NCBI GenBank assembly: GCA_050999655.1
Contig: JBPCPA010000282.1
Coordinates: 1,942 to 65,941 of the forward strand
Length of the DNA: 64,000 bases
Direction of reading: 5' to 3'
From: Jatrophihabitans sp.
GTDB taxonomy: Bacteria > Actinomycetota > Actinomycetes > Mycobacteriales > Jatrophihabitantaceae
The translations under genes were made by a program, and so were the position numbers. The notes beneath the pieces were generated by a model, which worked only from the letters and a program-made list of their open reading frames with translations, was not told the origin of the DNA and ran no database searches. Positions 44,246 to 56,413 of this stretch are shown piece by piece; within the stretch, counting starts at the first letter, position 1; every line of letters begins with the position of its first letter.

Positions 44246-45289
44246 GTGACCACGACTCTTTCGGCTCGTCATCAGGACGCGGCAATGCTTCCGTTTTTGA
44301 GCGGAGTAACTCAAGCAAAGCGGACGATCGTGGTCGCGGGTCGTAGCTTCGAGGTCACCCCGGTGTTTGACACCTACTGGCGATTCGCAGCAGCTCGCCA
44401 GCACATTTATGAGGCTCGACAGGCTGGGCGTCCCGGGCCGTGGACCAACGATCCGATTCTTCGGCTGCACCGGTTCACCAACTGCTTCCGCGCGGCCGAT
44501 CGCGTCAGTCAGTTCCTCATTGGTGAGGTCGCCTATCGTGGATCACAGGAGCCGGAAGAAGTCGTCTTCCGGACGCTGTTATTTAAGCTCTTTAACAAGG
44601 TGTCTACCTGGCGTCTGCTCCAACAGCACATCGGAGAGCTGACTTGGCACGGAGCAGACCTCGTGGCCTACGATGCCGTGCTTACGCAGGCATTCGCCGA
44701 GGGCCGCCGACTTTACTCGGCTGCCTACGTAATTCCTCCGCCGCAGCTTGGTGGGGAGCGGAAGCACTCTAATCACCTGCATCTTTTGCGCCTCCTGATG
44801 GAAGACCGGGTACACGAGCGATTGGCTGCAGCGCCAAGCATGGCGCACGCATTCGAGGTGCTGAGGAGCTACCCGGCAATCGGGGACTTTCTGGCCTACC
44901 AGTTCCTCATCGACATCAACTACAGCGGGGCATTGGCCTTCGATGAAGGCGAGTTCGTCGTACCCGGCCCCGGCGCGCGCGACGGCATCCGCAAGTGCTT
45001 CGGTGCCGCCGCGTCCGGATTTGAGGCTGAGGTAATCCGCTACATGGCCGACAGCCAAGAAGAACACTTCGATCGGCTGGGCTTAGAGTTCCACGGCCTT
45101 CGGGGCCGTCGCTTGCAGCTTATAGACTGTCAGAATCTCTTCTGCGAGGTAGACAAGTACGCCCGTGTCGCCCACCCCGATGTCCAGGGCATCTCCGGTC
45201 GGACCCGGATCAAGCAGAAGTATGCACCCGACGCAGCACCGTTGACGGCTTGGTTTCCGCCAAAATGGAATCTAAACGCCGCGTCCTGA
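44246..45289 (+). CDS. 5-hmdU DNA kinase helical-domain / aGPT-pyrophosphorylase family protein (standalone)
   Basis: YWRFAAARQHIY..R..G...PWTNDPIL...RFTNCFRAADRVSQ, RTLLFKLFNK, IGDFLAYQ...D.NYS, GPGARDG and DCQNLFCEVDKY.RV motifs. Confidence 0.82.
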   Translation: MTTTLSARHQDAAMLPFLSGVTQAKRTIVVAGRSFEVTPVFDTYWRFAAARQHIYEARQAGRPGPWTNDPILRLHRFTNCFRAADRVSQFLIGEVAYRGSQEPEEVVFRTLLFKLFNKVSTWRLLQQHIGELTWHGADLVAYDAVLTQAFAEGRRLYSAAYVIPPPQLGGERKHSNHLHLLRLLMEDRVHERLAAAPSMAHAFEVLRSYPAIGDFLAYQFLIDINYSGALAFDEGEFVVPGPGARDGIRKCFGAAASGFEAEVIRYMADSQEEHFDRLGLEFHGLRGRRLQLIDCQNLFCEVDKYARVAHPDVQGISGRTRIKQKYAPDAAPLTAWFPPKWNLNAAS

Positions 45290-45297
45290 CCGACTGA

Positions 45298-46251
45298 TCA
45301 GGTGGCGTTCATCGCCTCGTACTGCTCGACGGTGTACGGGATGAGCGTCCGGTTATGCAGATCCGCGACTAGGACACCGCTGCGATGTTCTATGAGGAAT
45401 CTGAAGGCGTTGTACCCGGCCAAGATGGCGTGCTGCCAGTCGGGAATGCTGCGACTCTTTACCTCGAGATGAGCCGTTGCGCGCCTGCACGACTTCAGGA
45501 GGTCTCGTGGTACGCGAGTAGTGGTCTTGAAGAACGAGTAGTCGGCTGCCTCGGCGAACACAGACGCCGTGAGGCCTTCTTCGATCACGACTGCTCTAGC
45601 GCCGTCCTCGACCCGGTCGAGCCGTTCAACGCTCTTCCGCTTGCACTTCGGGTCGAGGATTGCCCTAATCACCGGCGACCAGCCGAGGACTGCCATGTGG
45701 CCCAGGTGCAGCGCGTCGTGGTAGCGATAGAAATCATCGATGTCGCTGTTGTCATCGATTGGGTCGCCCATCCGGCGGAAGGTCGTCTCACCGTTTAGTA
45801 CCGTCAGGGTCACGACGCCAATTTCTCGACCGTCGCGGATCTCGGTGTGTTCGTTGAAGCGCACGACAAGCTGACGCGGCAACTGCTCATGTGGTTCCAT
45901 ATCTTCGTCGAAGAGATCGTGCGGACGCGGTGGCTCATTGGACAGGAATTCACCGGCAGCTTTGTCCAGGTTTGCTTGGGCAATTTCGCCGAGGGTCAGT
46001 CCGACTCGCGACGCCAGTGCGGCCATGTACCACAACGCATCGCCTAATTCCTCCTGCACGGACTCGCCGAATGCCCTGTAGCCTGTTGAGTCACGGTTGC
46101 GCTTCTTCCACTCTGCTGCGAGTTCGCCGACCTCACCTACAATGCCGAACAGTGGAAGCACCAAATCGCTAGCCGACCCATCTTTTGGCAGGATATCGGT
46201 AGCGAGTGCCCGTCGTTGGTATTCGTCCAGAGACAGTTCAGTAGTACTCAT
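45298..46251 (-). CDS. MazG-like nucleotide pyrophosphohydrolase with C-terminal MazG_C domain
   Basis: GEVGE and EELGDALWY metal motifs. C-terminus GDPIDDN...YRYHDALHLGHMAVLGWSPVIRA...KRKS...VEDGARAVVIEE. Confidence 0.88.
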   Translation of the reverse strand: MSTTELSLDEYQRRALATDILPKDGSASDLVLPLFGIVGEVGELAAEWKKRNRDSTGYRAFGESVQEELGDALWYMAALASRVGLTLGEIAQANLDKAAGEFLSNEPPRPHDLFDEDMEPHEQLPRQLVVRFNEHTEIRDGREIGVVTLTVLNGETTFRRMGDPIDDNSDIDDFYRYHDALHLGHMAVLGWSPVIRAILDPKCKRKSVERLDRVEDGARAVVIEEGLTASVFAEAADYSFFKTTTRVPRDLLKSCRRATAHLEVKSRSIPDWQHAILAGYNAFRFLIEHRSGVLVADLHNRTLIPYTVEQYEAMNAT

Positions 46252-46949
46252 ATCAAGATCCTCGCTGCTTGTGCGCCGAAGTTGATCAAATATTCTACCG
46301 GGAGAAGCCCATAGCCGCCTGCCCCCCAGAATTCACCCCATGAGTTACGGATCAGAAACACCCGGCCATGCGTGAGATCGGTCCACGCCCCTGTGACGAC
46401 CACAGCGTGATAGCCCTCGGCGGGGGCCGTGATGGGTGGAACTGTTACGTAGCCGTCCAGATCGGGCGTGCGAAAGTTGGCGCTTATCTCGATCACTAGC
46501 ACCACTGGATGGCCGTCCGCGAGTTCGTGCTCAACTGCGTCTTCCACGCCATCGTGCGCTATGACGACAGGCGAAAGGTTGGCGCGGGTCCAAGGCGGAA
46601 TACCGGCGGATGCAGGCGGTGGCTCAGACTCGAACCCGAGGCTGTCGTTGTAGGGCCACAGATCAGCGTCGCAATGGCCGGTGTGCGGCAGCGCGTGGCC
46701 TGCTGAGCCTAGGGTCGTACCGTCGTGTCCGGCCAAGCCCCACTCACGAAGGCGCCACCAGATGGGCTCGATCGCGGCCTCGAATCCAGAGCGTTCGGCC
46801 TCATGAGCAGCAGCCAGAGCACAGGCAACGCACGTCGGTCGCGGGCCTTGATCCATGACGTCGCTTGAGATCTGCGACGTCAGGTCGACCGCAGGGCGCC
46901 CAGCGGCGGACTCACGGAGTTTCTTAAGCCGCTCAGCAGCGGTGGTCAC
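46248..46949 (-). CDS. papain-like (C1) cysteine peptidase
   Basis: DQGPRPTCVACA (Gln/Cys), YHAVVVTG (His) and IRNSWGEFWGAGGYG (Asn). No signal peptide. Confidence 0.9.
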   Translation of the reverse strand: MTTAAERLKKLRESAAGRPAVDLTSQISSDVMDQGPRPTCVACALAAAHEAERSGFEAAIEPIWWRLREWGLAGHDGTTLGSAGHALPHTGHCDADLWPYNDSLGFESEPPPASAGIPPWTRANLSPVVIAHDGVEDAVEHELADGHPVVLVIEISANFRTPDLDGYVTVPPITAPAEGYHAVVVTGAWTDLTHGRVFLIRNSWGEFWGAGGYGLLPVEYLINFGAQAARILI

Positions 46950-48229
46950 GCGACATCGACCTCGAACTCGGCGTCGTCATCAGGGTCGCCTGGCAACCGC
47001 CGGTCTAGGTCACTCTCTAGCTGTCGCCGCCGGAACGCAGTATTCGGAGTTGGCTGGACCGCCAACTGCAGCTCGTAGGTGAAAAGCGGTTCGTCCCGTG
47101 GGTCGTAGGCGTGAGCGTAAAAGAGTTGGAGTTGCCACCCACCGGGCCTGACGGTACGCACGATGACCGTACGAACGCCGTTGCCGCCGATCGGTGGGCC
47201 ATCGGCGATCTCCATGGCTGGGCCACCTTGGCGGGCACGGATTCTGCGTCGACGTTGCCGTTGGATCTTGGTCTGCGGCTCGTCGCCAGCGGTAAACGAA
47301 TCCTCGACCACGGTGGCCGGCGCGGCATCCTCGTCCGCGTCAGAATCGTCAGGGGCGGAATCGAGGGTTCGAATTTGTCCCAGGGCGGCGAGTGTGTAGT
47401 CCGTCGCCGAGAATTGGTCCCGCCGTCGAAGGCTACCGTCGATGACGGGGACTTCCGGCGGTGCAATTGGACGGGACCGAGGCCTCCATGATCCGCCATT
47501 GCGTTGGGCCAGCTCATCCTCCGTCTGCCAGCGCCAGCCAGCGAGACGTTGCTCGACCAGGTCCACCATGACCTCGTCGTGCTCCTCGACGACGAGGCTG
47601 ACGAGCTCATCGTTGCTCGTCGCGTCCCACATGTCAGCTAGCCCGTTTTCCGGGCGGTGGTTGCCGGACGCCCGTCGGAGGGCGGACATCCGACCCAGGT
47701 CCAAAATTCGTTGAAATGCAGCCTGGTTGATGAACCGAGCGGCGAGCAGTCGTCGGGCGGTGGCCTCGTAGCTCACACCCAGATCGCGGCTCAATCGGTA
47801 GACGTGCTCCGGTTTGATCTGACCTCGTCGCAATCCGTAGGCTGCGACGGCGTGATTCAACAACGTCGGAGGCATCAGGAAGTAGCCAGCGAATAACTGC
47901 GCCTCGCGCTCCAACTCGCTGGACGGGTGCCCGAGAACCTCAGCTTCGCCGTCCATCCGTAGGTGGTCCGCGTGTAGAACCCAGTGACCAATCTCGTGCG
48001 CTGCTGTATATCGCTGGATCGCAGAGCTCCGCTGTGACGTAATCAGGACCCCGCCATTCCCGTCAGGAACGACTGCGCCGAGCAGGTTGTCCAAGTTAGT
48101 GATATGCAGAGCTAGGCCGAGTCGGTCGATTGCCGCGAAGGGATCGATTACATATCTTTGATCGATGCCGAGGAGTTCGAGGGTCTCATCTGCGGCAACT
48201 AAGGCGTCGGCGCGCCCCGAGACGGTCAC
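46946..48229 (-). CDS. ImmA/IrrE family Zn metallopeptidase with C-terminal chagasin (I42)-like domain
   Basis: QRYTAAHEIGH, EREAQLFAGYFLMP and LGVSYEATARRL. The C-terminal beta-domain pattern is described under findings. Confidence 0.85.
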   Translation of the reverse strand: MTVSGRADALVAADETLELLGIDQRYVIDPFAAIDRLGLALHITNLDNLLGAVVPDGNGGVLITSQRSSAIQRYTAAHEIGHWVLHADHLRMDGEAEVLGHPSSELEREAQLFAGYFLMPPTLLNHAVAAYGLRRGQIKPEHVYRLSRDLGVSYEATARRLLAARFINQAAFQRILDLGRMSALRRASGNHRPENGLADMWDATSNDELVSLVVEEHDEVMVDLVEQRLAGWRWQTEDELAQRNGGSWRPRSRPIAPPEVPVIDGSLRRRDQFSATDYTLAALGQIRTLDSAPDDSDADEDAAPATVVEDSFTAGDEPQTKIQRQRRRRIRARQGGPAMEIADGPPIGGNGVRTVIVRTVRPGGWQLQLFYAHAYDPRDEPLFTYELQLAVQPTPNTAFRRRQLESDLDRRLPGDPDDDAEFEVDVA

Positions 48230-48624
48230 GTTGGCTCCTCCTCCGGCGGTCGTGGGCGTGAGCGAGTGTTTGTCCCGTCTTCCGTGCGTTGTTGTGCGGC
48301 CAGAAACTCCGCGAAGCGGAGTACCTGTTCCTTATCGGCATTAGTGAGGTTCGCTGTAGCGCGGTGTAGGGCACTACCGGCAGCTGCCTCGGGCTCTTCC
48401 TCGCCTAGCAACCAAGCCACATCTCGTTGATAGAGACGAGCCAGTCGACGGAGTTCCAGGCCAGTAATTTTACGTGTGCCCTTCTCCACTGCGGCTAAGG
48501 TCGGACGACTCAAGCCGAGCGCGTCGGCGACATCGGCTTGAGTCAGGCCCATAGCAAGACGCGCATCCCGAAGCCGAGCCCCGACGACTCTGTGTTCGTT
48601 CGGTTGATCGCTCAACGGACTCAC
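48226..48624 (-). CDS. XRE family HTH regulator
   Basis: GARLRDARLAMGLTQADVADALGLSRPTLAAVEKGTRKITGLEL. The GTG start overlaps the AcpS TGA. Confidence 0.92.
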   Translation of the reverse strand: MSPLSDQPNEHRVVGARLRDARLAMGLTQADVADALGLSRPTLAAVEKGTRKITGLELRRLARLYQRDVAWLLGEEEPEAAAGSALHRATANLTNADKEQVLRFAEFLAAQQRTEDGTNTRSRPRPPEEEPT

Positions 48625-48992
48625 GCGGCGTCGCCGATCGCTACGACGAATGCCAGAGCGAGGCCCATTTCGTGGCTCAGACTTAGCGACCATTCAGTGA
48701 GGCGAAGGTTTGATGCATACTTCGCGGCATCCCCACTGAGACGTAGGCACGGCGTCTCGCCTTGTGCGCTTACGACCTCGATATCCAAATGCTCGATGTC
48801 AGGGAATCCCGCTCCGAGCGCCTTCATCACCGCCTCCTTTGCTCCCCATCGAGCGGCCAACCGCTCGGCGTTCCCAGCGCAGTACGCCTGCTCTGCTTCG
48901 GTCCATGTCTGATCCAAAAAGGTTCGACCACCCGACTCGGCCAGCCGGCGGAGACGATCGATGTCGACAAGGTCAACTCCCGTTCGCAGCAT
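48621..48992 (-). CDS. acpS: holo-ACP synthase (AcpS-type 4'-phosphopantetheinyl transferase)
   Basis: GVDLVDIDR, LAARWGAKEAVMKALG and SLSLSHE motifs. Confidence 0.92.
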   Translation of the reverse strand: MLRTGVDLVDIDRLRRLAESGGRTFLDQTWTEAEQAYCAGNAERLAARWGAKEAVMKALGAGFPDIEHLDIEVVSAQGETPCLRLSGDAAKYASNLRLTEWSLSLSHEMGLALAFVVAIGDAA

Positions 48993-48996
48993 CTAG

Positions 48997-49857
48997 TCAG
49001 CTCACCGAATCGTCTTGCTGGATCTGACTGCGGACCGTCGTGATGAGCTTCTTAAGAACGGTGTGACTGAACGTGCCGATCTCGGCGTTCGCGACGGTCC
49101 CGTGAATCATCAATTCTCCTGGTTCGTAGCCGGTCTGTTGAGACATAAAGTGGAGCAAACGAGTCAAGCCGATGAGGTTGCCATAGGCCTTGTGAATTAG
49201 GTGCCAGTGCCGGTAGACGGCCACTAAACTCAGACGATTGTGGACCACGCTGATATCGACATGGACGAGGCAGGGAAAAGCAATCTGACGTTCGTCATTG
49301 GCTTTGTATATTTGCAGGCCGGCGGATCCGACTGCGGATTCGATCTCGGCTACGCCTTCGAGAGCGAAGTCGGCGGCATTTGTAGCGGTATGTGCTTGAT
49401 TACGGTGTGAACGGAGCTGTTTAACGCGGCTCTTCAGTTGGTTGTACCCGTCACTTTCTTTACCCGGCCAGGACACGAGTCGTCCGAAGTAGGTTCCGTG
49501 GGCGTTGCCGTTAAACCCGCAGAGGTCCGGCAACATGTCTCGGTAGTTGGCGTACAGATCTTCGGCGGCAGCGTCCAGCAGATGGAGCTGCCCCGGCCTG
49601 AGATCGGGGTGATAATCAAGATCGGGTGGGGAGTAGAGATTCGCAGGGAATAGCGTATTAGCAACGGTATCGACTGAGTGATCGCCGCGCGGGATGAGCA
49701 ACGCATCGTTCGCCGCCACGATCTCGGGCAGGGGTGCGGACGGTTCGGTGATCGACAGCACAGTGTGGAGCAGTCGACCGTCGCGCCTAGCTTCTGCAGC
49801 TTCCAACACGCTCAGCCAGGCTACTTCGATGTTAGTGAATGAAGGAAACGCAATCAT
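48997..49857 (-). CDS. divergent thymidylate synthase / dUMP-hydroxymethylase homolog
   Basis: TYFGRL...NQL, FPCL (catalytic Cys), LSLVAVYR....KAYGN and G.L..H..A. ATG at 49857 overlaps the upstream TGA. Confidence 0.75.
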   Translation of the reverse strand: MIAFPSFTNIEVAWLSVLEAAEARRDGRLLHTVLSITEPSAPLPEIVAANDALLIPRGDHSVDTVANTLFPANLYSPPDLDYHPDLRPGQLHLLDAAAEDLYANYRDMLPDLCGFNGNAHGTYFGRLVSWPGKESDGYNQLKSRVKQLRSHRNQAHTATNAADFALEGVAEIESAVGSAGLQIYKANDERQIAFPCLVHVDISVVHNRLSLVAVYRHWHLIHKAYGNLIGLTRLLHFMSQQTGYEPGELMIHGTVANAEIGTFSHTVLKKLITTVRSQIQQDDSVS

Positions 49858-50315
49858 GCGACCACCACCGCTCGGCGCAGTCGAGCGATGACTCCGGCGA
49901 CTGACCGGACACTCACAAAATCCTTCGGCTCGCAGTTGCCGCGCAGTCGCGTCCAGTCGCGTGGTCCGAGTACCCGCGCCACAATTCTGCATACGAAGAC
50001 CGCGAGCATGCTGTCGATAGCCAGGCTGCCGTCGCTAGCAAGTTCGCCAACCTTTAGCTCCGCGATGGTGCGTTGCGTTGAGGCAGTGAGGATGGTGAGA
50101 ACCTGCTGTTCGATCTCGGTCAACGACCCGGTCTGAAGTACAGAACGGTCGGCCACGAGGACTGCTGGCGCCGTCGCCAAGTCACCAGCCGCGTGCGGCG
50201 AGCCCTCATCGGCTTGATGCCGGGGTATCGGCTGTACGGTCCGGTGACGGCCAGAGGCCGGTCCAAACAATGCTGCACGCCGGGCCGATCGCGCGGCGGC
50301 ATCCATCTCTGTCAT
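49854..50315 (-). CDS. acyl carrier protein-like protein with N-terminal extension
   Basis: C-terminal ~90 aa: helix I (IEQQVLTIL), IDSM (Ppant Ser site), helix II and F.SVRSVAGVI (terminal helix). Two genes from acpS. Confidence 0.65.
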   Translation of the reverse strand: MTEMDAAARSARRAALFGPASGRHRTVQPIPRHQADEGSPHAAGDLATAPAVLVADRSVLQTGSLTEIEQQVLTILTASTQRTIAELKVGELASDGSLAIDSMLAVFVCRIVARVLGPRDWTRLRGNCEPKDFVSVRSVAGVIARLRRAVVVA

Positions 50316-50423: not shown

Positions 50424-50675
50424 TCAGTCGTATGGCGGATTTGCTAGGCCGTTGACCAGCATGGCTGCATCGATGTCAAGCGCCGCTGCGAGCTTGAGGA
50501 TGTTGTGCAGTGTCAGGTTTCGTCGGCCCCGTTCGACCTGCCCCACGAACGTCCAGTGCAGGTGCGCCAGGTCGGCCAGGGCTTCCTGAGTCAACCCAAG
50601 TTCATTACGCCGTACCCGGACCCGTCGCCCAAACTCTGCGGTCGCGGCGGACAACGGCGTGGGGGTGCTCGGCAT
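50424..50675 (-). CDS. small XRE family HTH protein
   Basis: FGRRVRVRRNELGLTQEALADLAHLHWTFVGQVERGRRNLTLHNILKLAAAL. Confidence 0.88.
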   Translation of the reverse strand: MPSTPTPLSAATAEFGRRVRVRRNELGLTQEALADLAHLHWTFVGQVERGRRNLTLHNILKLAAALDIDAAMLVNGLANPPYD

Positions 50676-54319: not shown

Positions 54320-56413
54320 TCAGGCCGTTGGCGCGGCGGCGCTGTCCAGAGAGCTAGCAATCTTGGTGATGTCGAAACAGACTTGCAGGAGCTCCTTCGA
54401 CAGGGCCAGGAAGACCTGCGTGTGTGCCTGCCAGAGTGCGCCTTGGCAGGCGTCGTAAAGCACGAATGCTGCTCGCCAATGATCCAGCTCGGTGGTTGTG
54501 CTTGCTCCGGAGCCGAGGTCGGCGTCGGCCAGCCGTCGCAGAATCACTTCATCGCTGGGCGGTGCCCAGGTGGACAGCAAGTGTTTTGCCGTCTGGAGCT
54601 TCGAGACGGAGTTACGGAGCTGGTCCTGAATGCTGATCCACGGTGCCATAAGGTGTTCCACACCTCGTCGAAGCTGGCGCCGTTGAACCGTGGCATAGAA
54701 CTTTTGGAATAGGTCGCTGTCGAGAAATTGGAACGCACTGAAGCAAGCTTGCCATATCCTTTGGCAAGCCTCGTCGACATCAAGCCCGTAGTCCTCGACA
54801 TCTCGCATGGCTCGGGCGTCAGGCTCATAGTTCACAAGGCTGATGTCGATCCTGAACATTGCCACGGAGCGCATCGTGAAGTAGCTGGCGATGTCGGCTG
54901 CGCCCCAGCCGTAGGCTTTCAGGTCCCATGCCTCGAAGAGCGTCTGCTGGGGGTTGTCGTAGCAAAAATAGAGTACCGCCGCACATGCTGCGGTCATCTC
55001 CAGATGCCGGCAGTACGTGCGAACGAGATGAGCTGTGAAGGGGTCAAGATAGATCCGATCGTCTTGGCGGCGCACCAGACCCATGCTCAGCAGTGGACGA
55101 ATGGCGGCCGCGTACTCGATTTGTGCCGGAGCCGGATTGTCATGGAAGTAACCGGGGTTCCTCGCAAAGAGTGTCATCGCGCACCGCTCGGTCACGTTGG
55201 CATGCCCGCAAAACGCGAGGAACACCAGCAGATCGATCGACGAGGACCCCCGCACTGCTACGAGCATCTGCAGGTAGGTCGCGGCGATCGACGCCTGGCC
55301 GGGCGGTGTTGAGGCTCGCAGGACCGTTCGGATATCTTTACGCACCACCTGACAGAACTCCGCGATCCCGATCTCAGGGTGCTCCGATAGGAATGCGCAG
55401 GCATTGGCAAGGGCGCGCGGTCGTCGGCCCATCGTGGTAGCCAAATCAGCGGCGCTGTCGCCGAGCGCCGGGTTCAGGAGACGGACCAGTGTGATCGCTT
55501 GATCTGCAGTGAGTTCACGAACGGTCAAGACCGGCGCCACCACATGCGGTAGAACGCCGCGAGTGGTGACAACGATCAGACAGGCCGGTTCGTCCGGCAG
55601 CCATCCGCGCATGCTGACGCCTGTTGGCCAGCCATCGATTACAACGACTTCCGGGCCCCGACCTGAGCTGAGCAGCTGTGTGAAGCGATCTTGAATCGCT
55701 GGCACGCTGAGCGTCGAGACATCTTTGTCGTGCTGCTGAAATAGCTGATACGTGGAAAGGAGTAACGCTTGTTCTGTATCAGCTTGCAGCCATTCCACCG
55801 ACCGATTGCGGAAGTAGTCGGCCACGAAGTGGGACTTGCCGACGCCAGCCTCGCCCTCGATAAAGATCAGTCCGGGTTGAAGGATCGTATTTCGACCCAG
55901 AGATGCATAAACTAGTTCATCCATTTTCTGGGTCAGGTCGTAGCGAGCGACAACGGCATCGACGCTGGGCGTAGGCGCATTGCGGTACGTGCGCCGCGCG
56001 ATCACCTGGAGTTCTCGCGCGACGAGTTCGAGAATTCTCGGCTCGTACTCGACTCCGCTTTGAAAAGTGCGAGGAGAGACCTTGAACTTGTCCATCGCTG
56101 CTTTGCGTCGTTCTCCGATGCCTCGAAGGTCGCCTGAAGCGAGACCGAACTCCTCGTGAGCCGCCTCCCGGTAGGTCTTAACGTCGATGGCTCTGACTGC
56201 GGAGCGCATCATCAGCTCAATCGCAGTTCGGATGTCTCTTGCTTGCGGGTACGCCCGAGGAGCGTTTTCGACGAGCCACGGATACGGCGGTTCAAACCCG
56301 CCGTCGCTGAGACCATGCACACCAGGCTCACGAAACGCAAGAAGCTCAAGCACGAGGGGGTCGGCATTCTCGTACGGCTTCGGCACCTTGAATGTCGGCG
56401 ATCCCGTAGTCAC
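54320..56413 (-). CDS. STAND/NB-ARC-like P-loop NTPase with uncharacterised N- and C-terminal domains
   Basis: GEAGVGKS (Walker A), VVVIDG (Walker B), IVVTTR (sensor 1), then an L...EA..L / G.P.AL helical region. Confidence 0.75.
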   Translation of the reverse strand: MTTGSPTFKVPKPYENADPLVLELLAFREPGVHGLSDGGFEPPYPWLVENAPRAYPQARDIRTAIELMMRSAVRAIDVKTYREAAHEEFGLASGDLRGIGERRKAAMDKFKVSPRTFQSGVEYEPRILELVARELQVIARRTYRNAPTPSVDAVVARYDLTQKMDELVYASLGRNTILQPGLIFIEGEAGVGKSHFVADYFRNRSVEWLQADTEQALLLSTYQLFQQHDKDVSTLSVPAIQDRFTQLLSSGRGPEVVVIDGWPTGVSMRGWLPDEPACLIVVTTRGVLPHVVAPVLTVRELTADQAITLVRLLNPALGDSAADLATTMGRRPRALANACAFLSEHPEIGIAEFCQVVRKDIRTVLRASTPPGQASIAATYLQMLVAVRGSSSIDLLVFLAFCGHANVTERCAMTLFARNPGYFHDNPAPAQIEYAAAIRPLLSMGLVRRQDDRIYLDPFTAHLVRTYCRHLEMTAACAAVLYFCYDNPQQTLFEAWDLKAYGWGAADIASYFTMRSVAMFRIDISLVNYEPDARAMRDVEDYGLDVDEACQRIWQACFSAFQFLDSDLFQKFYATVQRRQLRRGVEHLMAPWISIQDQLRNSVSKLQTAKHLLSTWAPPSDEVILRRLADADLGSGASTTTELDHWRAAFVLYDACQGALWQAHTQVFLALSKELLQVCFDITKIASSLDSAAAPTA

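Follow-up and report, generated by a model that had tools for sequence, protein, structure and literature searches.

A divergent thymidylate synthase-like protein lacking the Asp169 equivalent, encoded in a mobile XRE/ImmA-associated cassette, is a candidate for non-canonical dUMP C5 modification

The 64,000-nucleotide stretch of Jatrophihabitans sp. DNA analysed here (assembly GCA_050999655.1, contig JBPCPA010000282.1, positions 1,942 to 65,941; hereafter the window) carries on its reverse strand an operon that includes a gene for a distant relative of thymidylate synthase (TS). This TS-like gene, whose product we refer to as P0001, is preceded by a carrier-protein-like gene and followed by genes for a 4'-phosphopantetheinyl transferase (PPTase) of the AcpS type, an XRE-family repressor, an ImmA/IrrE metallopeptidase, a papain-like (C1) cysteine peptidase and a fusion of the nucleoside triphosphate (NTP) pyrophosphohydrolase MazG with a MazG_C domain. 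A gene for a stand-alone HMUDK_hel protein, the helical domain of 5-hydroxymethyldeoxyuridine (5-hmdU) DNA kinases, is convergent with the operon. The whole cassette lies in a region of lower GC content than its surroundings (~0.60 vs 0.70). For the TS-like gene the start at 49857 was preferred because close homologues start with MIAFP and because this ATG overlaps the TGA of the carrier-like gene as ATGA. A longer frame beginning at 49992 thus lacks support.

Standard family models recognize P0001 poorly. Pfam PF00303 (Thymidylat_synt) gives 19.3 bits, under its cut-off of 24.3, and PRK01827 scores 16 against a cut-off of 327. A PDB sequence search with the single sequence returned chance matches only, a 66-sequence profile matched nothing in the same database up to E 0.01, its weaker matches (E 0.02–1) being TS chains only, and no PADLOC model matched the protein. 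Alignment of P0001 to a single ThyA with hhalign scored 85.8%, and a 101-sequence family profile aligned to five ThyA sequences with a probability of 97.6% (E 1.3e-11). An AlphaFold2 (AF2) model of P0001, with a predicted local distance difference test score (pLDDT) of 85 and a predicted template modelling score (pTM) of 0.86, matched TS folds in Foldseek with a probability of 1.00 (E 6.5e-9). VIA-align superposed about 200 residues of the model on such structures with Z scores of 13.4–16.3 and root-mean-square deviations of 3.1–4.2 Å; the top matches were the flavin dCMP hydroxylase structures 9iqc and 9iqu (Z 16.3 and 16.1) and MilA (Z 16.0), with classical TS at 13.9 or lower. The similarity of P0001 to the TS family is thereby confirmed to be far beyond chance, with a fold that spans the whole chain, and the motif match from which a preliminary description of the window had recognized a TS homologue is not spurious.

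That description had aligned the protein by eye to Escherichia coli ThyA, noting an R-H-W-H...N string at the ThyA spacing and a catalytic cysteine kept in FPC, and the profile alignment bears this out. C196, R216 and N227 of P0001 pair with C146, R166 and N177 of ThyA, and the distances from Cys to Arg (20 residues) and from Arg to Asn (11) are identical in the two proteins, the P0001 string being FPC196 ... Y215-R216-H217-W218-H219 ... G226-N227. At the positions of H147, S167, C168 and D169, P0001 has L197, H217, W218 and H219. The catalytic Y94 corresponds to Y123 in both the large-profile hhalign and the MAFFT superfamily alignment. F124, suggested as its equivalent by an alignment to a single ThyA, was dropped because both of the larger alignments give Y123. 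The equivalent of Q111 is also kept. Other contacts have changed: H207 and Y209, which hold the 3'-OH in ThyA, are N257 and E259, the phosphate arginines R126'/R127' are A155 and H156, and the counterpart of R21 (the R28 position) is variable. The catalytic Cys is preceded by a disordered insert of about 20 residues (168–187, window 49297–49356, pLDDT <50) that is without counterpart in ThyA, varies in length and is much longer in a Burkholderia plasmid copy, and the C-terminus is a long helix, unlike that of ThyA.

Conservation was read from 38 close and 66 distant relatives, 101 sequences together, which extend down to 26% identity. Y123, R126, P195, C196, R216 and N227 are invariant in this set; W14, V65, T68, F70, P71, F124, Q140, D188, F194, L197, Y215, G226, G230 and G247 are near-invariant, and position 223 is Arg or Lys in every sequence. 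The position of D169 is occupied by Tyr (41 sequences), His (33), Phe (10) or Asp (5), and by Asn in only two. Position 217 is Asn, His or Ser and position 218 is Gln, Trp or His, which gives a family motif of R-[NHS]-[QWH]-[YHF]. Of the rewired RHWH motif first described, the loss of Asp169 therefore stands and the HWH triplet as a conserved feature does not, since it varies among the relatives; judged from the alignment, it is the loss of this Asp, and not 'RHWH', that the family has in common. The equivalent of L143 is small (Gly in 76 and Ala in 15 of the 101), the equivalents of H207 and Y209 vary among D/N/E/Q and E/D/Q, respectively, and the A155 and H156 positions are variable.

The reference enzymes behave as the preliminary description had stated, namely that D169 is kept in folate enzymes and that Asn177 specifies dUMP and is replaced by Asp in dCMP hydroxymethylases. 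In the MAFFT superfamily alignment, R-S-x-D is retained by all folate-dependent references: E. coli ThyA, T4-type Td, the host ThyA, T4-type gp42 and two phage dUMP hydroxymethylases. Asp at the N177 position is found in gp42 alone among them (motif RSND), and N227 is invariant in the TS-like family. By homology, the kept residues are those predicted to bind the 5'-phosphate, read the O4/N3 edge of uracil, add the Cys to C6 and deprotonate C5, while the lost residues are those that in ThyA are tied to folate and to the sugar; the invariant R126 and the basic residue at position 223 appear to be family-specific gains.

The genome that carries the window also encodes, on other contigs, a full-length ThyA (198 bits) and a ThyX (165 bits); P0001 is therefore not the housekeeping thymidylate synthase. 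A tree with ThyA and the dUMP and dCMP hydroxymethylases, which had been suggested as a check, was built by quick maximum likelihood from 39 rows (LG+G4, SH-aLRT). All 29 TS-like rows, among them plasmid copies from alpha- and beta-proteobacteria, cyanobacteria and haloarchaea, fall on one side of a branch with a support of 84. A long branch (support 98) sets the TS-like clade, together with a PterinBD-fused paralogue from the host genome, apart from ThyA/Td, gp42 and the dUMP hydroxymethylases, and the two phage dUMP hydroxymethylases form a pair of their own outside the clade. The separation of the clade appears robust in this alignment, and the deep branching order is unreliable at 13–16% identity. 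The clade is large: a full-library profile search recovered 1,507 clusters at 50% identity with E ≤ 1e-3, 315 of them with E ≤ 1e-30. PF00303 was reached at E ≤ 0.01 by only 23 of 66 sampled relatives, and the ESM Atlas neighbours of P0001 are unnamed 'hypothetical protein' clusters. A literature search found no paper on the clade or the cassette; a mention is possible in Burroughs et al. 2015 and Iyer et al. 2013, which probably treat the MazG_C and HMUDK domains. On the evidence of profile and tree, P0001 belongs to a distinct, large and uncharacterised clade of the TS superfamily.

The host paralogue is a second divergent TS-like protein, of 521 amino acids, encoded about 2 kb upstream of the host ThyA gene. 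It matches PF00303 with 27.6 bits over residues 272–403, carries the motif RSHN and ends in a PterinBD-DUF4346 domain. The 198 bits of the host ThyA to PF00303 are low for the phylum, in which other ThyA proteins score about 420. A PF00303 match was found in only 10 of the 41 genomes of the phylum that were sampled, and most of them appear to rely on ThyX.

Table 1. Positions of the genes and residues described. Numbers are window positions unless a locus (L) or contig (C) handle is given.
Feature	Location	Strand	Evidence or remark
TS-like enzyme P0001, 286 aa	48997..49857	(-)	translation, TS fold, residue mapping, conservation
P0001 codon Y123	49489-49491
P0001 codon R126	49480-49482
P0001 codon C196	49270-49272
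P0001 codon R216	49210-49212
P0001 codon H219 (=D169)	49201-49203
P0001 codon N227	49177-49179
Carrier-protein-like gene	49854..50315	(-)	start uncertain; ACP-like domain = last 96 codons, 49857-50144
AcpS-type 4'-phosphopantetheinyl transferase	48621..48992	(-)	Pfam ACPS 1e-13; NCBIfam holo-ACP synthase up to 4e-26
XRE-family helix-turn-helix (HTH) repressor (CapH/ImmR-like)	48226..48693	(-)	start uncertain; Pfam HTH_3 2.6e-14
ImmA/IrrE (M78) metallopeptidase, CapP-like	46946..48229	(-)	Pfam Peptidase_M78 7.9e-14; PADLOC capP 3.6e-22
Papain-like (C1) cysteine peptidase	46248..46949	(-)	Pfam Peptidase_C1 2.1e-6
MazG NTP pyrophosphohydrolase-MazG_C fusion	45298..46251	(-)	Pfam MazG_C 3e-61, MazG 3.3e-5
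Stand-alone HMUDK_hel protein	44246..45289	(+)	PF18723 5.3e-113
Second small XRE-family HTH gene	50424-50675	(-)	upstream of the operon
697-aa protein	54320-56413	(-)	weak AAA_16 match
Host ThyA	C197:7858-8697
Host 521-aa PterinBD paralogue	L083:688-2253	(+)	contig C197
Sulfitobacter plasmid UDG-like gene	L094:7707-8408	(-)	NZ_CP136685.1
Sulfitobacter plasmid dCTP-deaminase-like gene	L094:9686-10411	(+)	NZ_CP136685.1; PF22769, 1e-17
Small XRE-overlapping ORF	L094:4655-4933
Small XRE-overlapping ORF	L095:4675-4944
Small XRE-overlapping ORF	L096:5421-5714
Haloarcula marina plasmid cassette	L097, 432-6621		NZ_CP100410.1

The carrier-like protein has no Pfam match. Its AF2 model (pLDDT 89) finds almost exclusively acyl or peptidyl carrier protein (ACP/PCP) chains among the top 50 Foldseek matches, with E values of only 0.25–1.5, and the sole residue invariant in 30 orthologues is S45, in an IDSM motif at the N-terminus of a helix. 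The AcpS gene begins 4 nt downstream of the TS-like stop codon. A second XRE-family gene lies upstream of the operon; several open reading frames (ORFs) of 200–400 aa without a Pfam match follow between 50675 and 54320, and the 697-aa protein lies further along the island.

The association of these genes was examined in a census in which the window neighbours were compared by tblastn with 80 related loci, 47 in clade 1 (at least 38% identity) and 33, mostly from Streptomyces, in clade 2 (~30–36% identity). XRE and ImmA genes each accompany the TS-like gene in 78 of the 80 loci (46 in clade 1 and 32 in clade 2), HMUDK_hel in 77 (45 and 32, mostly at 41–70% identity) and MazG-MazG_C in 71 (39 and 32). 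AcpS and the C1 peptidase are largely confined to clade 1, where they occur in 46 and 45 of the 47 loci, respectively; each was found in 5 of the 33 loci of clade 2. Clade-1 loci also carry a small ORF upstream of the TS-like gene, in which a Ser is the sole invariant residue. A metagenomic protein of 425 aa, P0252, is a natural fusion of a TS-like domain (residues 66–266) with an AcpS domain (314–412) that is 41% identical to the AcpS of the window. No longer fusion with a TS-like domain was found among proteins of 745–2125 aa, which is weak evidence.

The TS-like family was also found on plasmids, in 25 matching records of which 15 were typed as conjugative. On plasmids of Sulfitobacter, Tardibacter, Rhizobium and Burkholderia the gene stands with a small ORF, XRE, ImmA and C1 peptidase genes, convergent with a gene for a divergent protein of the uracil-DNA glycosylase (UDG) superfamily (PF03167, 22.8 bits in the Sulfitobacter copy) that takes the place of HMUDK_hel. 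In Sulfitobacter and Tardibacter a MazG-MazG_C gene comes after the UDG-like gene, and in the former a dCTP-deaminase-like gene adjoins it. A Nostoc plasmid carries XRE, ImmA, TS-like, HMUDK_hel and MazG-MazG_C genes, and a plasmid of Haloarcula marina carries tmk, HMUDK_hel, a 191-aa protein, a PPTase, XRE, ImmA, C1 peptidase and TS-like genes, so that the link to a PPTase recurs outside the Actinomycetota. On proteobacterial and haloarchaeal plasmids the TS-like gene is immediately preceded by that of the C1 peptidase. In the Sulfitobacter, Tardibacter and Nostoc cassettes a conserved small ORF (89–97 aa, no Pfam match) runs into the beginning of the XRE gene. A tblastn search of 50,697 phage genomes gave no TS-like match, and only 3 of 2.9 million viral contigs matched the family. 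The cassette is mobile: in Actinomycetota, Proteobacteria, Cyanobacteria and haloarchaea it resides on integrative elements and conjugative plasmids. The exchange of UDG-like protein for HMUDK_hel, and of tmk for MazG-MazG_C, across phyla argues for equivalent jobs. The carrier and AcpS look like an add-on rather than the source of a core cofactor, because many cassettes do without them although the catalytic residues are the same.

Several characterised systems resemble parts of this cassette. P0001 matches ThyA over its whole length (Z ~13.4–13.9) and shares with it the P-C motif, equivalents of R166, N177, Y94 and Q111, and the C-R-N spacing; it differs in lacking D169, S167, H147, L143, H207 and Y209, in that R126/R127 are not conserved, and in falling in a separate clade. 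The phage dUMP and dCMP hydroxymethylases and MilA are, like P0001, members of the TS superfamily; they form modified pyrimidine nucleotides and are encoded next to kinases and NTP pyrophosphatases. They all keep RSxD and folate dependence, however, and the TS-like family branches outside them. T4 gp42, the dCMP hydroxymethylase, combines RSxD with Asp at the N177 position, neither of which occurs in P0001, whereas the dUMP hydroxymethylases of M6-like, ViI-like and SPO1-type phages share its Asn at 177 and retain the RSxD that it has lost. In phages, a dUMP hydroxymethylase with a dTTPase, a deaminase and a deoxynucleoside monophosphate (dNMP) kinase swaps dTTP for 5-hmdUTP, and the base, once in DNA, is further modified by 5-HMUDK and aGPT-Pplase (PMC8989533). 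The types of enzyme in this pathway are like those of the cassette.

A precedent for the altered active site comes from TS homologues with D169N and a kept C146, which are flavin-dependent 5-hydroxy-dCMP synthases and for which D169N worked as the diagnostic residue (PMC13326640). As D169N was shown by experiment to mark a folate-to-flavin switch in these enzymes, loss of the Asp has a precedent as the signature of a change of cofactor. AfhB (HY126, 9iqc/9iqu) and RB69 gp48 resemble the TS-like family in that the Cys is kept and D169 is altered, and theirs is a non-methyl C5 chemistry (PMC13326640). A nucleotide kinase acts alongside them and thereby brings the product into DNA, and the TS-like cassette likewise has kinase-like genes. 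They differ in carrying D169N together with N177D and in acting on dCMP, whereas in the TS-like family position 169 is aromatic and position 177 remains Asn, and the family is cellular or plasmid-borne.

At the level of gene content the cassette can be compared with DS-4 ('NTTI') of E. coli, which comprises a TS, an adenylate/dNMP kinase, HMUDK_hel, TIR and Nmad2, was found by DefensePredictor and is experimentally anti-phage (PMC13092281). Common to both are a member of the TS superfamily, HMUDK_hel as a separate protein and a kinase function for nucleotides. What DS-4 lacks is the XRE/ImmA pair, the papain-like peptidase, MazG-MazG_C, the carrier and AcpS; conversely, no Pfam match to TIR or Nmad2 was found in the cassette genes or the scanned flanking ORFs of the window, where the kinase role would belong at most to MazG_C. 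MazG and MazG-C are listed as predicted, unvalidated defence domains in the same study (PMC13092281), and a paper on anti-defence genes of plasmid leading regions mentions none of the cassette genes (PMC11541004). The pairing of an XRE repressor with an M78 peptidase is shared with the CapH/CapP, ImmR/ImmA and DdrO/IrrE switches and presumably controls the cassette; the likeness concerns regulation only, not the chemistry of the TS-like enzyme.

On balance we favour the view that P0001 is a C5-modifying enzyme of dUMP that works without canonical methylenetetrahydrofolate (CH2-THF) chemistry, within a cassette controlled by XRE and ImmA. The first suggestion made for it, that it binds a uracil nucleotide and does something other than ordinary methylation, gains support in silico from the kept Cys, Arg, Asn and Tyr and the lost D169. 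In the scheme that we infer, from substrate (dUMP) and cofactor to product, sequence of steps and biological role, the cassette would be derepressed through the XRE/ImmA pair and MazG, in some cassettes with the dCTP-deaminase-like protein, would supply dUMP. The Cys of the TS-like enzyme would add to C6, and C5 would receive a non-methyl group by a chemistry that departs from the canonical CH2-THF reaction. The product would go back toward the triphosphate pool by way of Tmk or of MazG_C, which is predicted to be a nucleotide kinase, and HMUDK_hel or the UDG-like protein would act on the resulting base in DNA. The modified nucleotide may thus be fed into, or withheld from, DNA synthesis once the switch opens. 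For the role of the cassette, which we take to be one in conflict, we give phage defence an even chance, and hold protection or establishment of the mobile element to be possible with clearly lower probability.

Several observations weigh against this view. An Asp is present in place of D169 in five of the 101 relatives, and the Haloarcula copy has RSHD, so that a pterin may still serve some members of the family. The nearest sister of the TS-like clade in the tree (support 98) is the PterinBD-fused host paralogue. No conserved Glu or Trp counterpart of the folate-site residues E58, W80 and W83 was seen, yet their loss is not proven, as the N-terminal half is not alignable residue by residue: hhalign and MAFFT disagree across it, and its global hhalign contradicts the structural ranges, in which model residue 11 corresponds to ThyA residue 1. 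The nearest NCBIfam model is thy_syn_methano, the methanogen-type thymidylate synthase (E 3e-9). In DS-4 the TS is of the canonical type, with RSGD and an HHpred probability of 100 to PF00303, so that the analogy holds at the system level only. Finally, the proposed pathway leaves the parts played by the carrier, by AcpS and by the papain-like peptidase unaccounted for.

Within the favoured view, two specific chemistries stand level, each of them rather unlikely when taken singly. In one, P0001 would be a flavin-dependent dUMP C5-hydroxylase forming 5-hydroxy-dUMP, in parallel to the phage 5-hydroxy-dCMP synthases but on uracil. Structurally, P0001 matches 9iqc and 9iqu best, although the folate-dependent MilA scores alike and the ranking does not discriminate. 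The retention of C146, the loss of D169 and the Asn at 177, which reads uracil, fit such an enzyme, as D169 is altered in enzymes of the 9iqc/9iqu type; the diagnostic change, however, is D169N (PMC13326640), and the TS-like family has mostly Tyr, His or Phe. A kinase-like domain is part of the cassette, many versions also encode a UDG-like protein, and some glycosylases of the UDG superfamily excise 5-hydroxyuracil. No flavin reductase was seen in the cassette.

The other, of the same low probability, is a reaction of the dUMP hydroxymethylase type, in which a non-canonically bound pterin or another one-carbon donor would yield 5-hmdUMP (or a related one-carbon adduct) that feeds HMUDK_hel, after the manner of thymidine hypermodification in phages. 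The near-constant presence of HMUDK_hel in the census speaks for it, as do the parallels with DS-4 and with phage clusters such as that of PAC5 (Yuavirus), which shows the hypermodification layout with kinase, aGPT-Pplase, Nmad5 and TS genes, and the PterinBD-DUF4346 domain of the sister protein in the host genome. With a small residue in place of L143, water could reach an exocyclic methylene; hydroxymethylases, however, typically have Asp or Glu there (PMC13326640). The absence of RSxD, which both phage dUMP hydroxymethylases and gp42 keep, the position of the family outside the hydroxymethylases in the tree, and the UDG-like gene that replaces HMUDK_hel in many cassettes argue against it.

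Less probable than either is a carrier-dependent chemistry, in which the phosphopantetheine arm of the ACP-like protein, lying in the former folate site, would hand C5 an acyl or other group or capture its exocyclic methylene as a thioether. It is suggested by the translational coupling of the ACP-like gene to the TS-like gene (ATGA) with AcpS 4 nt after it, by the near-universal presence of AcpS in clade 1 and that of a PPTase in the haloarchaeal cassette, by the single invariant Ser and ACP-like fold of the carrier, and by the natural fusion P0252. Mutants of TS are known that let thiols trap the methylene intermediate. Clade 2, however, rarely has the PPTase, and the cassette encodes no acyl-loading enzyme. 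Those cassettes of Proteobacteria and Cyanobacteria that were inspected lack both carrier and PPTase and have the same invariant TS-like residues, and the carrier is therefore not essential to the core chemistry. The fuller proposal, that in the TS fold the carrier's phosphopantetheine arm (or another non-folate cofactor) has taken the place of folate to make a novel C5-modified deoxyuridine nucleotide, which bacterial and archaeal mobile elements would put into DNA on induction, is likewise a long shot.

That P0001 is an ordinary, fast-evolving thymidylate synthase that boosts dTMP for the mobile element, for example of the methanogen type with another one-carbon carrier, we consider improbable. 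The catalytic Cys, Arg, Asn and Tyr are kept, thy_syn_methano is the nearest curated model and the NCBI annotation pipeline (PGAP) labels some plasmid copies 'thymidylate synthase'; but the scores are far under the curated cut-offs, for thy_syn_methano 36.5 bits against 174.55, D169, H207 and Y209 are replaced, and the host already has ThyA and ThyX. Moreover, the gene is tied to a stress-type repressor/protease pair, MazG-MazG_C and proteins directed at DNA bases, not to folA or nucleotide-supply genes. A protein without catalysis, be it a nucleotide sensor or a pseudoenzyme, that regulates the cassette by binding dUMP or a form of it modified by phage would suit a remodelled cofactor site in a regulated conflict cassette, but is the least credible reading, as the invariance of the catalytic Cys and the Y94-type Tyr down to 26% identity is unexpected for a mere binder.

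The TS superfamily is among the best studied, and each new chemistry found in it, hydroxymethylation and then, in 2025–26, flavin-dependent hydroxylation, opened a field of DNA modification. The clade described here comprises about 1,500 clusters at 50% identity, is mostly missed by Pfam and has no solved structure. If the phosphopantetheine-based or other non-folate reading were true, it would be a cellular, non-viral pathway of thymidine replacement or hypermodification, serving phage defence or the protection of transferred DNA. The product of the TS-like enzyme, once found, would define a nucleotide or DNA modification outside phages, would account for a widespread and apparently undescribed cassette, and would explain the recruitment of a carrier protein and a PPTase to nucleotide metabolism.

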